Of a stretch of 44,592 nt of DNA, positions 1,187 through 15,799 are shown in pieces (within the stretch, counting starts at the first letter, position 1; every line of letters begins with the position of its first letter). A program made the position numbers and the translations under genes. The stretch lies in sequence record MN158212.1; one strand, written 5' to 3'. The stretch is from Escherichia phage BEK1-1. The notes beneath the pieces were generated by a model. The model was not told the DNA's origin, did no database searches, and saw nothing but the letters and a program-made list of their open reading frames with translations.

Positions 1187-1262
1187 ATTTAACCTCGTTC
1201 GTCGTTGATGGGGGTAATCATACTCCACCTTTTAATTTTTTATTTAGCAATTTGTGCTATTT
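1187..1262 (-). promoter_or_regulatory. box promoter (AAATAGCACAAATTGCTAAA, 20 nt, TATGAT, leader ACCCCCATC...) upstream of the annealase gene
   Basis: Direct reading of the reverse complement; same architecture as the other copies. Confidence 0.5.
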
Positions 1263-2226
1263 AAATTTCTTTATACTTCCTCATATCCCACTCAGGAACA
1301 TCTAAGTCGATCTCTGTTGCGCCCATTGCATACCCTGGCCACACGTCATTCTCTTTACACTTCTTGTAAGTGGCAAGCGCCTCTAGATACATTCTGCGGC
1401 CAACCTTCAGTTGCTCTTCTGTAATATTGTAAAGCATTGGTAGGTAAGGCTCCTCTTTCTCGATTGCAAGTAGCCTTACTTTTGTTTTTCTTTTTTCATT
1501 AAAAGCCCTAACAAAAACATCGTGCTGTAGCGCCATTTTTGCAAGATAACCATGCTTGAATGCAAGCCTCCCAAACTCATGAGGTGATGCGCTGGCTGTC
1601 GTCTTCAGGTCGGTAATGCATACCATACCATCAACAACATCGACATGGTCAATTCGGATCTTAACGCCAACGCCAAGAATCTCACCGAAGATAGATAATT
1701 CCTTCTGCGCCGTCTCGCTATTAACGATTGCATTATATGCAGGAATATTGCAAAGAACCTCACGCATCGCGACAACTTTGTCATAGTCTGCTGCGCTAAC
1801 TAGCTCCTTGCCCTCTACAAGAGCCTGTGCGCTCTCCTGCTGCTCAATTAGCCATTTAACAGGCCAATCCTCACCAGATCGATACATCATCTCTACGAGC
1901 TCGCTATAACCCTTCCCGGAAGTGCCAGCCACGCCAACTTTTTTAAGTGCTGAAGCTAAACCTGCCTGGCTTGTAATTAAGCCTTCAATCGCGTCAAGGT
2001 CTGTAGCTCGAAGGTATTCTTTATCGAATACATCTTGCTCCAAAATCATCGTGTGGCTTAGTGTGCCGAACTTAAGCGCCTTGCTATCATTATTTCGCTG
2101 CTTAAATTTCCACTTCGCTGGTGATCCTTGGATAATCTCGACAAGTGAAGAGCCTGAGATGTGGTCAGTTTCAGCGTGGTAAGCCTCGTTGCTTAGTTCT
2201 TCTCGTGTGTAAACTCTGAAAGTCAT
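1261..2226 (-). CDS. PD-(D/E)XK family recombination exonuclease (YqaJ/RecE-like)
   Basis: 321 aa; ...IDHVDVVDGMVCITDLKTT... fits D...(D/E)xK; synteny with annealase and SSB. Confidence 0.55.
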   Translation of the reverse strand: MTFRVYTREELSNEAYHAETDHISGSSLVEIIQGSPAKWKFKQRNNDSKALKFGTLSHTMILEQDVFDKEYLRATDLDAIEGLITSQAGLASALKKVGVAGTSGKGYSELVEMMYRSGEDWPVKWLIEQQESAQALVEGKELVSAADYDKVVAMREVLCNIPAYNAIVNSETAQKELSIFGEILGVGVKIRIDHVDVVDGMVCITDLKTTASASPHEFGRLAFKHGYLAKMALQHDVFVRAFNEKRKTKVRLLAIEKEEPYLPMLYNITEEQLKVGRRMYLEALATYKKCKENDVWPGYAMGATEIDLDVPEWDMRKYKEI

Positions 2227-11092: not shown

Positions 11093-14074
11093 TTAGTTAA
11101 ATCCGCGCAGGTAAGCATAAGCACGGCCGCCTTGCTGGAAGGACTGAGCAATCTCTTCCGCTACGATAGCCTTGACGCCGCTCTGCAACGCTTTGGCTTG
11201 CTCTGGGTCGCTACCCACCCCTGAGTTTACGTTAACAGTAATGCCGCTAACATTAACATCAGTTCCACCAGAAACCAAACCTCCATTTGCATAACCAGAA
11301 GGACCACCAACAACACCGCCATTCGCATAACCCTTCATCAGCGCGTATAGGTTCTTAACACCAATTCGGCTTGTCGCTTCTTTTGTGAATACAAACTCGC
11401 CACGGTGTACCGTTCCTGCTGGTTGGTATTTCCCACCATTGCCGGTGTAACCACCATTAGCAAATCCACCACCAACCGCGGATGCGATAGAACCAATAGC
11501 GCCGCCAGTGCCTCCGAAGCTACTCAAGCTAGACTCGATAGCCTTGACAACAAGAAGCTGGGTTGCAATCTTTGCTATCTGCTTCAGGATGCTAACAGTA
11601 AACTCCCTGAAGTTTGTTTCTCCAGTCGTTACAAGGTTGGTAATCTGGTCGGTAATACCTTCGAAGACTGTTGTGGTTAAACTTCCAGCTATTGAAAATG
11701 CATCCGTCGCACTCTCAGCCCAATTGGTAAAGGATTGATTCACGCCAGCAAGCCAGTTTTCACGTAGCGCATCTTCCTGAGCATAAAAGTTACGTCTTGC
11801 CTCCAGTAGTTGCGTGAAATCAACGTCATCAAGTGCTCCTCCAGCATTAACCTGATTGGACTGAAGAGCTTGAATCTCTCTTGCCCTCTGCTGCTCACGA
11901 GAAGACAGGCCAGCCCCCAAATTAATATTGCTTGCCTCATTGTTAATCTGAAGAATCTTCTTGCGGTTATCTTCAGCTAACTTATTAGCTCGCTCCTGCA
12001 AAACAACCTGGTCACCTAGTTCAGCCTTCTGCCTTGCGAGTGCAAGAACTTTATCCTTTTCAATGAGAAGCCTTGCTTGCTCTTTGGTGATTGAGCCATC
12101 AAGTTGCCTCTGCTCAAGAATCCTGAACTTAGCCTCCTCCTGAAGGTACTGCTTGCGCTCATTACTTATTACTGCTCCAATATCCCTGTTTTCCTGAAGT
12201 ACCTTTAGTTGAGCCTGAAGTGCCAGCACGCCAGATTCGTAACAAATTGTAAGGTCTCTTTGCTCTTTAGCCCTACCATTTTCTTCTTTCCTACTCTTCT
12301 TGATCGCATCAAGTTCATCCTGAAGCGCCTTCTTCCTTTTTGCAAACTCCTCATCAGCACCTGACTGCTCATTGGAATTCTGATTTTCCCTGCGTGTAAC
12401 GTAACCAAGTTCTCCTTCTCTGATTCTGGCATCTCTCTCCCTGATAGACTTCTCTAGCTCAAGGTTTTGCTTCTTGGCGGCATCGATAATCTTCTGCTGA
12501 CTCTTGATTACATCATCACCGACACCATCAAGGCCTGGGATATTCTGCAATGCCTGAGTTGCACTAATTACAAACTCACCAATCAGCGCGTCACCTTGGT
12601 TAATGAAGACCTTAATCTGTTCAATTGTCCCGGCTATTACATCAACAAACAGGTTTAGCGCCCCAACCGTTCTGCGACTAATTGCATCCCATACATCAGA
12701 TATGTACTTCCTGAAGTCATTCCAGGCCAATTCAAGAGGAGTAAGCTGGGCTGCAATATCGTTAAGGTTTGCTTCCTGTGATTTGCTAAATATATCAATA
12801 GCAGCAGTTACGGCTTCAACCTCACCCCTAGTCTCTCTCAATCTTTCAATTGTTGTTAACTGCCCCTGTGTAAGGAAGTTAAACCTCTTGTCTAAATCAG
12901 CAAGTCCTTGAATTGGGTCGCTCGCAATCTGGTTATAGTAACCAGTAATTTCCTTTGCATCCTTACCTGTCAACTGCGCCCATCTGGCGGTAGATTTAGT
13001 AATCTTGTCAATCTGCGTCAGCGTAAGGTTCCCTTGCTCAATAAGGCTTGTTGCGATGCTAGTCACAAGTCCTCTGGTTGCACCAGTAGCATCAGAAACA
13101 GAGCTAACCAACTCTCTAACCTGCGAGATTGATGCGATTGTGGAGTTGTTTGAGAACGCAATGGCAGAATTTAATGCTCTGAATTCACTCTCTGCCTGGG
13201 CAGCACCGATACCTAGAGCAACAAGCGCGCCACCCAAAACCCCAACAGCAACATTGAATGGATTTAAGGCTGCAAGCGCGAATCTAAAGGTGTTACCAAT
13301 ACCTCCAAATGCATCCTTAATTTGTCCGCCTTGCTGAATTGCAATAAGCCAAATCGGAATGCCGCCAGCAAGTGATGTCCCAATATCTGTAATCTGCGCT
13401 GGCAATTGAGAGATTGCAGCCTTGTATTGACCTGCGCTTAATCCTGATTTCTGAAAAGCCTTACTCTGAGCAATTAGCTGGGTGTTTGCCTTCTGTGATG
13501 CATCGGCGATTCTGTCAATGATGGGTGCAGCCTGGGAGCTAACTCCAAGCTGGGCCGCTTGTAACTTTAGGTACTCCTCTCTCGTCAATGTCGCCGCCTG
13601 AGCCTGACGCTCAAGTGATGCGATAAATCTATCCGCTTCAGCCTTTGCTTTTGCTTTATCCTTTGCAGCCTGTGCTGCCGATCTCCCCTCTTCAGTTAGC
13701 GCCGCACGTGAACGAGCAAGTTTTGCGTTCTGCGTTTCAAGGGCTTCACCTAAGCGGAAAAACTCCTCATCAGGAACTAATCCAGCCGCGAAAGCCTTAT
13801 CAAGACCTACAGCAGCCTCTTGCAGCTTTCGGAACTTTGCCGCAGTTGGATCAATAGCTGTTTGCAATTTAGCTAAAGATGCTTGCTGTTCAGCCAGTGC
13901 GCGAGCGGTATCTCTAGCCTGGTTTTTAGCTACCTGTTCAGCGTTGACGAACTCACTAATACCGGAAGCAGCCTGCTGGTTTGCCTGTCTGAACTTTTGT
14001 AGGGATTGCGTTCCCCTGTCTACCTGCGAGACGTCTACGGCTAGTGTGATTCCGGCTAATTCATTTGTTGCCAT
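11093..14074 (-). CDS. tail tape measure protein
   Basis: 993 aa; long Ala/Gln/Glu/Lys-rich coiled-coil regions; Gly-rich C-terminus; follows the G/GT chaperone. Confidence 0.85.
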   Translation of the reverse strand: MATNELAGITLAVDVSQVDRGTQSLQKFRQANQQAASGISEFVNAEQVAKNQARDTARALAEQQASLAKLQTAIDPTAAKFRKLQEAAVGLDKAFAAGLVPDEEFFRLGEALETQNAKLARSRAALTEEGRSAAQAAKDKAKAKAEADRFIASLERQAQAATLTREEYLKLQAAQLGVSSQAAPIIDRIADASQKANTQLIAQSKAFQKSGLSAGQYKAAISQLPAQITDIGTSLAGGIPIWLIAIQQGGQIKDAFGGIGNTFRFALAALNPFNVAVGVLGGALVALGIGAAQAESEFRALNSAIAFSNNSTIASISQVRELVSSVSDATGATRGLVTSIATSLIEQGNLTLTQIDKITKSTARWAQLTGKDAKEITGYYNQIASDPIQGLADLDKRFNFLTQGQLTTIERLRETRGEVEAVTAAIDIFSKSQEANLNDIAAQLTPLELAWNDFRKYISDVWDAISRRTVGALNLFVDVIAGTIEQIKVFINQGDALIGEFVISATQALQNIPGLDGVGDDVIKSQQKIIDAAKKQNLELEKSIRERDARIREGELGYVTRRENQNSNEQSGADEEFAKRKKALQDELDAIKKSRKEENGRAKEQRDLTICYESGVLALQAQLKVLQENRDIGAVISNERKQYLQEEAKFRILEQRQLDGSITKEQARLLIEKDKVLALARQKAELGDQVVLQERANKLAEDNRKKILQINNEASNINLGAGLSSREQQRAREIQALQSNQVNAGGALDDVDFTQLLEARRNFYAQEDALRENWLAGVNQSFTNWAESATDAFSIAGSLTTTVFEGITDQITNLVTTGETNFREFTVSILKQIAKIATQLLVVKAIESSLSSFGGTGGAIGSIASAVGGGFANGGYTGNGGKYQPAGTVHRGEFVFTKEATSRIGVKNLYALMKGYANGGVVGGPSGYANGGLVSGGTDVNVSGITVNVNSGVGSDPEQAKALQSGVKAIVAEEIAQSFQQGGRAYAYLRGFN

Positions 14075-14089
14075 CTAAGCCTCCATAAT

Positions 14090-14120
14090 AGAAAACCCGC
14101 CGAAGCGGGTTATTTTTTTC
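14090..14120. terminator. hairpin plus T-run between the chaperone genes and tape measure
   Basis: ACCCGC-CGAA-GCGGGT followed by TTATTTTTTTC on the plus strand; weaker T-run on the minus strand. Confidence 0.45.
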
Positions 14121-14439
14121 TCAGGTTGTCCATCATCTCTAGAGCCTTAGCTTCAAGGATGCGTAAATCGCTGAGCACCAATTCTTCTTCAGAAACATTA
14201 TACACTCTAAAGAGGAAATTTAGCACGTTGTAATCAAGTCCTGTAGCTCCGTTAGCTCCTACTCGCCACTGTGTAGCCATTGAACAATAAATGTCCCACG
14301 CCTTCATCATGTTTTCGTCGAAGTGTAAAACTTCAGGCTCTTCATCTTCGTAATCAGAGCGGCGCATCCCAATAGCTTCCAGTTCGGCATCAGTTGGATC
14401 TGACTGGTACTGTAGATACACCGCTCGTTTTAGTTTTTT
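14110..14439 (-). CDS. -1 frameshift extension giving a G-T-like fusion chaperone
   Basis: The -1 frame is open from the slippery site A_AAA_AAC (about 14433..14439) to the stop at 14110; it matches track ORF 14110..14421. Confidence 0.5.
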   Translation of the reverse strand, partial: KKLKRAVYLQYQSDPTDAELEAIGMRRSDYEDEEPEVLHFDENMMKAWDIYCSMATQWRVGANGATGLDYNVLNFLFRVYNVSEEELVLSDLRILEAKALEMMDNLRKK

Positions 14440-14744
14440 ACTCGCTGACCAGCAAGCGCTTGCATATAAGCGGTAGTCAGTGCAACGGTTGACGCTGGGA
14501 ACAGGTCGCAGAACTCATTAACGTTATCCTCGTTGTATTCTTCTTCCAAATCCCAATCAGAGGCGATTGCCATAATCAATTCTTTAGTGCTCAAGTCTTC
14601 TTTCTGCAAAAGCTCCTGAAGCTCAGATGTTTTCTTATGCTTGACTGTAAAGATAACCTCTACATCCTGGTCGTTAGCCAGCTTGAATTTTACAGGCAAC
14701 TTAAAGTCAGGGAGTGCTGCCAGTGAAAGTTTGAACTTAGCCAT
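14430..14744 (-). CDS. tail assembly chaperone (lambda gpG-like)
   Basis: 104 aa, acidic; directly upstream of tape measure; ends ...GTA AAA AAC TAA with slippery heptamer A AAA AAC. Confidence 0.6.
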   Translation of the reverse strand: MAKFKLSLAALPDFKLPVKFKLANDQDVEVIFTVKHKKTSELQELLQKEDLSTKELIMAIASDWDLEEEYNEDNVNEFCDLFPASTVALTTAYMQALAGQRVKN

Positions 14745-14783: not shown

Positions 14784-15032
14784 TTACTTAGTGTTTTCTT
14801 TTGCAATCTTAGCAGCCGAGTCCTTACAAACCTCTTTGCCGTATTTCATGATTTGGTCAACTTTGCCACCTACAAGTTCCTGACATGCTCGCTCAGCCTT
14901 AGCAAATTCAACAGTATATTTGTTTGCCTTGCTATTGGCATCAGCCTCGCCAGTTGGGTTAACAATCTGAACTACCGCATAAAAAGCAACCAGAACCGCA
15001 GTAAGTTTGATGATGTTTTTAACGTTATTCAT
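14784..15032 (-). CDS. small secreted or membrane-anchored protein (82 aa), moron candidate
   Basis: N-terminal hydrophobic segment MNNVKNIIKLTAVLVAFYAVVQIV; has its own box promoter; sits between major tail and chaperone genes. Confidence 0.45.
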   Translation of the reverse strand: MNNVKNIIKLTAVLVAFYAVVQIVNPTGEADANSKANKYTVEFAKAERACQELVGGKVDQIMKYGKEVCKDSAAKIAKENTK

Positions 15033-15111: not shown

Positions 15112-15131
15112 AATAAAAAACCCTCCGAAGA
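15105..15131 (-). terminator. intrinsic terminator after the major tail protein gene
   Basis: Minus strand AAACCCTC-TTCGG-AGGGTTT followed by TTTTTATTGC. Confidence 0.7.
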
Positions 15132-15142
15132 GGGTTTGTGTT

Positions 15143-15799
15143 TTAAACTTCGGCCGCCACAGAAGACAGGCGACCACGAATTGATACTGCGATGGATACC
15201 GTTTCGATTTCGTTAACACCAATGGTAGGGGTGTCATTGAAAGCGATAGTACCGGACTGCAAACGCATTTCCTGAGCGCGAGGTACGAACAGACGAATTG
15301 CAACAACCTGGCCAGACTCATCGTACTTACGCAGAACCGGATAGACCGGGTTGGTGTACTCGTGAGCAAAGGTGAAGGTGTTTGTTACCGCAGATTTATA
15401 AGTCGGAATCTGCTGCTCGCGGTCATCGGACAAACACTGGAAGTTAACGAACTGCTGCTCACCGCCGTCAGTAGATACGTCCTGAACGCACGGAACTTCG
15501 AACCAGGAAGTAATCTTGACAACTTCACCAGTTAAACCAGTAGGGAACTTAGTGGTGTCGGAGGTATCAATACCTTCAACTGTTACCGAAGTGCCAGAAA
15601 CTTCAGTTACTCTCACCTGCTTGTCGCTAAGTAGGGTTGAGGTGGAGGCGGTAAACAGAAGGTAGTCACCCTTAGCCAGGTCAGATGCGCTAGATACGGT
15701 TAAAACTGGTTTATCTTTGTTAGAGATTGCAGTTACGGTAATTGGAGCTCCGCGAGTTCCTTCTACGAAGACCTGCGTGCCATTTGATAAATGAGCCAT
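15143..15799 (-). CDS. major tail protein (gpV-like)
   Basis: 218 aa, Thr/Ser/Val-rich; position before the chaperones; followed by a strong terminator. Confidence 0.65.
   Translation of the reverse strand: MAHLSNGTQVFVEGTRGAPITVTAISNKDKPVLTVSSASDLAKGDYLLFTASTSTLLSDKQVRVTEVSGTSVTVEGIDTSDTTKFPTGLTGEVVKITSWFEVPCVQDVSTDGGEQQFVNFQCLSDDREQQIPTYKSAVTNTFTFAHEYTNPVYPVLRKYDESGQVVAIRLFVPRAQEMRLQSGTIAFNDTPTIGVNEIETVSIAVSIRGRLSSVAAEV

Follow-up and report, generated by a model that had tools for sequence, protein, structure and literature searches.

The window analysed here, i.e. the whole stretch of 44,592 nucleotides (nt) of DNA from Escherichia phage BEK1-1 (MN158212.1), carries between its tail tube and tape measure genes two overlapping open reading frames (ORFs), G and T, which very probably represent a recoding site of the G/GT type, i.e. 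a tail assembly chaperone gene from whose end some ribosomes would pass by a programmed -1 frameshift into a longer chaperone, GT. BEK1-1 is a T1-like siphophage of Escherichia coli (Drexlerviridae, Braunvirinae), and the region is 92-94% identical at the DNA level to about 80 E. coli phage records. A programmed -1 frameshift in a G/GT-like chaperone had been proposed in the initial annotation; the anatomy of the site, the gene families, the gene order, the conserved position of the slip motif and a switch of coding frame at this motif all agree with it, as far as sequence evidence reaches. The feature as such is already known: it is an ordinary G/GT recoding site, and an orthologous site has been annotated. 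The G/GT frameshift is long established in long-tailed phages and was noted earlier for T1-like phages, and nothing about it is biologically new.

Anatomy of the probable recoding site

All coordinates are window positions, and G, T, the slippery heptamer and the flanking tail genes are located on the minus strand. The site is composed of the following elements.

14744..14430, minus strand: G-type tail assembly chaperone gene, whose ordinary translation product has 104 amino acids (aa), 11.8 kDa
14439..14433, minus strand: slippery heptamer A_AAA_AAC in the X_XXY_YYZ phase of G, with the Lys codon AAA in the P site and the Asn codon AAC in the A site
14432..14430, minus strand: 0-frame TAA stop codon of G, directly 3' of the heptamer
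14433..14110, minus strand: T-type extension, read in the -1 frame over 107 codons and a stop codon, which would be reached only after the slip

The 3' end of G reads ...CAG CGA GTA AAA AAC TAA, with the last two sense codons belonging to the heptamer, which abuts the TAA. The canonical A AAA AAC named in the initial annotation is therefore present in both the sequence and the phase given there. Between 14514 and 14113 the -1 frame contains no stop codon; it ends with one at 14112..14110 and overlaps G by 85 nt. The listed ORF 14110..14421 lies within this frame, and the coordinates first reported for the ORF proved exact. Counted from the heptamer the -1 ORF has 107 codons, 106 of them past the G stop. 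Plain translation of the -1 frame at the slip site gives ...KKLKRAVYLQYQSDPTD..., including the string KKLKR; a tandem slip after decoding of the Asn codon would produce the junction ...QRVKN-LKRAVYL.... The predicted GT fusion, join(14744..14433, 14433..14110), has 211 aa and 24.3 kDa, and its predicted Asp-N junction peptide is DLFPASTVALTTAYMQALAGQRVKNLKRAVYLQYQS.

A slippery heptamer by itself is weak evidence, because 36 in-frame X_XXY_YYZ heptamers occur in the window (approximately one per 356 codons in ORFs of at least 100 aa). Only one of them, that at 14439..14433, enters a long -1 ORF; the other 35 reach no more than 27 codons. The frequency of such heptamers speaks for an explanation in which the heptamer and the open -1 frame came together by coincidence and T is a non-functional remnant. 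The comparative data described below bear directly on this.

Frame switch at the slip motif

The region was compared with 14 annotated phages and 80 IMG/VR loci, and the predicted fusion was used as a tblastn query. The latter matched 1135 phage records; among the matches listed, every row spanning both halves consisted of two pieces in two frames, and no in-frame G-T fusion was present among the listed matches that were sampled. Relative to G, T occupies the -1 frame in every one of the 14 annotated relatives and in 79/80 IMG/VR loci, and it runs 102-106 codons beyond the G stop. The slip motif begins exactly 7 nt before this stop in the same numbers of cases (14/14 and 79/80). Both the -1 arrangement and the position of the motif hold down to approximately 28% protein identity.

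The motif itself is more variable than its position. At -7, the IMG/VR loci carry A_AAA_AAC followed by TAA (46/80), the tetramer A_AAA (28/80; GCA AAA GTT/GTC/GCC TAA) or the tetramer A_AAG (5/80; GCA AAG GTC TAA), with one exceptional locus of the 80 having five A residues in place of six. The stop codon that follows is TAA in 79/80 loci; it is TGA in Pseudomonas phage YMC11/02/R656, which at 33% identity has the canonical heptamer G_GGA_AAC at the same place. T1 has A_AAA_AAC at this place, as does Dhillonvirus Opt212 at 28% aa identity; in the latter, a -1-frame stop codon is situated just upstream of the motif, which means that the shift must occur within a 10-nt overlap. Replacement of the heptamer by a tetramer at the same position was observed in Rogunavirinae (our loci L020, L113 and L039-L043) and in Webervirus (L022, L023 and L071-L099). 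The family therefore alternates between heptamers and single-tRNA slip motifs at a constant distance to the stop codon.

On the 0-frame side, the peptide Y-x-x-A-L-A-G-x-R-x-K is conserved as far as the motif, and upstream of the motif the -1 frame is unconserved and contains stop codons in some relatives. Past the motif it is the -1-frame peptide LKRAVYL that is conserved, also in relatives which have no start codon there. The distribution of variable columns in an alignment of close relatives follows the same pattern: third positions of G-frame codons account for 64 of the 81 variable columns before the motif and for 20 of the 24 inside the G/T overlap, and third positions of -1-frame codons for 35 of the 43 after the motif. 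The coding signal, in terms of both protein conservation and codon-position periodicity, changes frame exactly at the motif. Like the anatomy of the site and the family assignments given below, this comparative signature is a direct observation.

The spread of the tblastn matches, the fixed motif and the frame switch effectively refute the explanation by coincidence, to which we attach next to no probability. T occurs in as many as 1135 phage records and matches the Pfam family DUF1799, the position of the motif is constant across the family, and the T frame is under purifying selection, with 35/43 variable sites at codon position 3.

Both halves of the predicted fusion score above the curated Pfam thresholds and belong to the families represented by gp40/gp39 of T1, i.e. 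Phage_TAC_4 plus DUF1799. G matches Phage_TAC_4 (PF08748) over its full length (E=5.4e-34; 117.5 bits against a cut-off of 21.1), and T matches DUF1799 (PF08809; E=2.9e-16; 59.9 bits against a cut-off of 26). In addition, G was assigned to phrog_569 and T to phrog_680, and a further group, phrog_17368 (213 positions), spans both, with G at positions 1-107 and the T extension at 108-210. Fused versions of the pair are thus already present in phage protein collections. No NCBIfam model matched G, T or the 82-aa ORF located upstream of G (see below), and a sequence search of the PDB with the GT fusion gave no match at E values up to 1. A single-sequence AlphaFold model of G was also obtained; its mean predicted local distance difference test score of 50 made it unusable for assignment of the fold.

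Ribosomal versus transcriptional slippage

A run of five A residues in place of six was found in two unrelated records, phage 2725-N35 (our locus L002; MN840485.1, around 2162..2168) and L064 (IMG/VR UViG_2974632794, around 1209..1213). The shorter run puts T in the +1 frame, and the called G ORF of 2725-N35 is lengthened to 117 aa. These records probably contain homopolymer sequencing errors; if the shorter run is real, T would be reachable in these phages only through a +1 slip.

The presence of a run of six A at the site raises the question of whether the change of frame could take place in transcription. RNA polymerase stuttering on this run would add one A, and in a subset of the mRNA G and T would then form one continuous frame, joined as ...VKKLKR.... 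In bacteria, slippage during transcription is known to produce changes of frame (PMC5009743). Two public records, 2725-N35 and L064, are one A short at the same run, which is therefore indel-prone, at least in sequencing. Nevertheless, we consider this explanation very improbable. Six A residues make a short run for such slippage, which in E. coli requires approximately nine or more A to be efficient. Moreover, relatives without a usable homopolymer (GCA AAG GTC with three A, GCA AAA GTT with four, and G_GGA_AAC) keep the same architecture, and their motifs still obey the rules of tRNA re-pairing. A ribosomal slip therefore accounts for the family much better than transcriptional slippage.

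Possible independent initiation of T

One codon has to be considered as a possible start of T.

14421..14419, minus strand: GTG encoding Val in the conserved KRAVYL, located 8 nt past the stop of G; no other codon is a candidate for an independent start of T

T could be translated from this GTG as a separate protein of 103 aa, through termination-reinitiation or with the help of its own weak ribosome binding site, in which case the heptamer would be incidental. The GTG is kept in the clade of the window (GTG at +11 in 8/80 loci), and it is from this codon that the majority of the examined GenBank records call T as a separate ORF. Furthermore, a note in the record of phage OzMSK states that the frameshifted product 'also has independent RBS', and in some relatives the spacer contains AGAGGG, which resembles a Shine-Dalgarno sequence.

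Across the family, however, T has no conserved start codon: counted from the G stop, the earliest ATG, GTG or TTG in frame with T varies between clades from +11 to +245 nt. The GTG is a Val codon of KRAVYL, replaced in other clades by GTT, GTA or CTG, and the first T-frame start is there 20-245 nt further, well within the conserved peptide. The residues L-K-R-A, which precede the GTG, are conserved at the protein level. Predicted pairing of the GTG region with the anti-Shine-Dalgarno sequence amounts to -2.2 kcal/mol at a spacing of 1 nt, the weakest among 10 tail-gene starts; the corresponding values are -5.8 kcal/mol for G, with the Shine-Dalgarno sequence AAGAGGA 9 nt before its ATG, and -9.3 kcal/mol for the tape measure gene. 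An independent start would leave the constant 7-nt distance from the beginning of the slip motif to the G stop throughout the family unexplained, and in lambda the function of T requires its fusion to G (PMC5009743). As expected of a G/GT pair, T overlaps the end of G in the -1 frame and has neither a conserved start nor a conserved ribosome binding site. Re-initiation at the GTG is not the conserved mechanism, and we regard a separately initiated T with an incidental heptamer as improbable.

Relation to known frameshifting systems

The -1 frameshift of the lambda G/GT genes was described by Levin, Hendrix and Casjens (1993) and by Xu, Hendrix and Duda (2004, 2013, 2014), as summarised in PMC5009743. 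The BEK1-1 genes resemble those of lambda in that two ORFs lie between the tube and tape measure genes, the second of them in the -1 frame and without a start of its own; the gene order is that of lambda (V-G-T-H-M-L-K-I) and the expected output is likewise a short chaperone in abundance, with the fusion being rare. The G/GT arrangement used for comparison here is the one defined by Xu, Hendrix and Duda (2004). The protein families differ, since lambda G belongs to Phage_TAC_2 and T to Phage_tail_T, in contrast to Phage_TAC_4 and DUF1799 in BEK1-1. Homology to lambda G was not detected by hhalign with an alignment of 11 G sequences (probability 0.1%), and the pair is therefore not assigned to the lambda G/T sequence families. 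Judged by these sequence comparisons, it is 'G/GT-like' in arrangement and predicted mechanism, not by detectable homology to lambda G or T. The slip site is different as well: in lambda the heptamer is G_GGA_AAG and lies five codons before the G stop, whereas here A_AAA_AAC abuts it.

Much closer counterparts are found among T1-type phages, from which the recoding site itself shows no substantive difference. Genes gp40/gp39 of T1 are orthologous, share approximately 51% protein identity and the same two Pfam families, and have A_AAA_AAC TAA at the same position. Escherichia phage OzMSK (PQ659294.1), with 94% DNA identity, also has A_AAA_AAC TAA at this position. A joined GT coding sequence has already been deposited in GenBank for OzMSK and for Klebsiella phage Sushi (NC_028774.1); in both cases its length fits the re-reading of one base, and that of OzMSK matches the predicted GT. 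Phages of the Sushi type differ in having only the tetramer A_AAA. A conserved frameshift has also been mentioned for Citrobacter phage Stevie (PMC4319613) and for E. coli phage U136B (PMC8104045). The Braunvirinae, to which the window belongs, differ from other T1-type phages in an additional 82-aa ORF between the tube gene and G, and in a predicted long-range hairpin downstream of the motif as opposed to a short local one in the T1 and TLS clades.

Outside phages, A_AAA_AAC is the proven natural -1 site of insA-insB' of the E. coli insertion sequence IS1 (Escoubas et al. 1991, as cited in PMC4066793). IS1 has the identical heptamer in the same host, low efficiency, a small amount of fusion protein and no established stimulator; it differs in that the product is a transposase instead of a phage morphogenesis protein, and there is no homology between the two systems.

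Proposed mechanism and expected amount of GT

The ribosomal nature of the slip, its rate and the roles of the two domains, as we infer them, would be the following. The majority of ribosomes would end at the TAA of G, releasing the 104-aa chaperone, and a small fraction would slip one base back on A_AAA_AAC (14439..14433), with the peptidyl-tRNA-Lys re-pairing from AAA to AAA and the tRNA-Asn from AAC to AAA. The slipped ribosomes would read 107 further codons in the -1 frame, giving the 211-aa GT, in which G and T residues meet at ...QRVKN|LKRAVYL.... If the roles are analogous to those in lambda (PMC5009743), the G domain, present in both products, may form a coat on the tape measure protein, recruitment of the tail tube protein may fall to the T (DUF1799) domain, which is rare, and neither G nor GT would be retained in the virion. 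We hypothesise that slipping may be made more frequent by two neighbouring features, the stop codon next to the heptamer and a hairpin predicted 6 nt downstream.

Reporter data for individual heptamers in E. coli are available from Sharma et al. 2014 (PMC4066793, Table S3). The -1 frameshifting measured there was as follows.

A_AAA_AAC: 0.163% without stimulator, 0.189% with the IS911 stimulators, 0.739% with the IS3 pseudoknot
G_GGA_AAC: 0.164% without stimulator, 0.222% with the IS911 stimulators, 0.888% with the IS3 pseudoknot
G_GGA_AAG (lambda): 0.277% without stimulator, 3.80% with the IS911 stimulators, 43.0% with the IS3 pseudoknot
background without motif, same reporters: 0.046%

The heptamer used by the T1-type family ranks among the weakest for which E. 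coli measurements exist, and a low GT:G ratio is expected because A_AAA_AAC is weak in these reporters. It would perhaps be between 1:100 and 1:500 unless raised by the local context. The slip rate is probably well below that of lambda, for which a GT:G ratio of about 1:30 is given (PMC5009743).

Several points weigh against a programmed frameshift at this site. As A_AAA_AAC is among the weak E. coli heptamers, the amount of GT could be very small. In the clade of BEK1-1, the GTG 8 nt past the G stop may give rise to some free T by re-initiation. G and T are annotated as separate genes in the majority of the examined phage records, and in the literature searched we found no experimental demonstration of a GT fusion for any T1-type phage, only annotation. 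These considerations are outweighed, in our opinion, by the agreement of anatomy, gene families and the frame-switch signature, and we retain a G/GT-type frameshift as the most probable function of the site.

Downstream RNA structure and the adjacent stop codon

A possible stimulator is situated shortly after the heptamer.

14426..14357, minus strand: predicted RNA hairpin beginning 6 nt after the heptamer; candidate frameshift stimulator

Its outer helix has 18 base pairs, formed by the 5' arm GAGCGGUGUAUCU-CAGUA and the 3' arm UAUUG-GGGAUGCGCCGCUC. The 100 nt counted from the heptamer have a minimum free energy of -32 kcal/mol (z = -4.6 relative to 200 dinucleotide shuffles), and approximately 3% of 100-nt segments along 16 kb of the same strand fold equally well or better. 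The hairpin is kept in every Braunvirinae relative examined and varies less than any other 70-nt segment of the G-T alignment. Compensatory changes were not observed in any of its pairs among the Braunvirinae relatives, and BEK3 has one uncompensated change. Variable third codon positions are not significantly depleted in the hairpin relative to the rest of T (4/23 versus 31/84; Fisher p = 0.086); a value of p = 0.003 was obtained only after pooling in the more divergent G region. A search of Rfam gave no match to the hairpin, and returned just two sub-threshold, rsmX-like chance matches on terminator hairpins.

The initial annotation had pointed to a downstream stimulatory structure as a feature to look for. 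Such a structure is predicted to be stable, it is kept in the Braunvirinae, and its distance of 6 nt falls within the 5-9 nt spacer of stimulated sites of the dnaX or IS3 type; support from covariation was not obtained. A role of this hairpin as a frameshift stimulator is possible. It should be noted that A_AAA_AAC responds little to stimulators in E. coli reporters (PMC4066793). An upstream Shine-Dalgarno-like stimulator was not seen in GCTGGTCAGCGAGT on inspection by eye, without a formal test.

The structure downstream of the motif differs from clade to clade. The 70-nt long-range hairpin is typical of the Braunvirinae. A short local hairpin, GGCGGUUU...AAACCGCC, located 7 nt after the heptamer, takes its place in the T1, TLS and Hanrivervirus clades, where it shows weak covariation (two pairs, both from one sequence). 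The Sf12/Rogunavirus clade has no notable downstream structure (z of approximately +0.4), and Rogunavirinae, in which the hairpin is missing, have the better tetramer A_AAG.

The combination of a weak, poorly stimulated heptamer with a motif that is always 0-1 codon away from the 0-frame stop could mean that the slip is aided by the stop codon. We put forward only tentatively, as a rather doubtful possibility, that slow termination at the adjacent stop would help the tRNAs in the E/P or P sites to slip while the stop codon fills the A site, with the clade-specific hairpins perhaps adding to this effect. If true, slip motif and stimulator would have turned over in evolution at a constant output ratio. 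The natural variation at one and the same position (heptamer or tetramer, hairpin or none) may also provide a comparative series for studying how a very low frameshift ratio is set.

Annotation of G and T

In most of the GenBank records of this group that were examined, the two ORFs appear as two separate hypothetical proteins or are mislabelled as 'tape measure protein'. Many RefSeq records name both chaperone ORFs 'tail length tape measure protein', and the same label is attached in PHROG to phrog_569, phrog_680 and phrog_17368. The tape measure label on chaperone ORFs is a propagated annotation error. The correct entries for the pair would be G and, as a joined product, GT.

Tail gene neighbourhood

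The genes flanking the G/T pair are arranged as follows.

15799..15143, minus strand: major tail tube gene, upstream; Pfam Phage_tail_3 (1.2e-68), phrog_584
15118..15137, minus strand: terminator-like hairpin with UUCG tetraloop and U-rich tail, after the tail tube gene
15032..14784, minus strand: 82-aa ORF between the tube gene and G; hydrophobic N-terminal helix, phrog_22925 (unknown function), no Pfam or NCBIfam match
14094..14111, minus strand: terminator-like hairpin with UUCG loop and U-rich tail; it overlaps the stop codon of T and precedes the tape measure start
14074..11093, minus strand: tape measure gene (993 aa), directly downstream; TMP_2 (4.7e-49), Tape_meas_lam_C (1.5e-19), phrog_24

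A tail terminator gene is also present upstream, and homologues of lambda M, L, K and I follow the tape measure gene, so that the order is of the lambda type (V-G-T-H-M-L-K-I). G and T are located between the tube gene and the tape measure gene, as is characteristic of G/GT pairs; the placement immediately before the tape measure gene, already recognised in the initial annotation, is confirmed by the Pfam matches of the neighbours.

The 3' end of T reads AGA AAA AAA TAA and contains an in-frame A_AAA_AAA at 14113..14119 (minus strand), directly before the T stop. A second slip at this place would lead into the frame of the tape measure gene, where a TAG right before the tape measure ATG closes the frame after 12 codons. 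A fusion of GT with the tape measure protein is therefore impossible, and this candidate was rejected.

The 82-aa ORF has a terminator-like hairpin upstream, and T1 has no such ORF at the equivalent position. The ORF resembles a 'moron' that was inserted into the tail operon in a clade-specific manner. Terminators have been annotated in T1, CEB_EC3a, Sushi and AKS96 at places equivalent to the two UUCG hairpins, including, in all four, a rho-independent one at the boundary between T and the tape measure gene. A terminator at this boundary could contribute to setting the ratio between the chaperone and tape measure genes.

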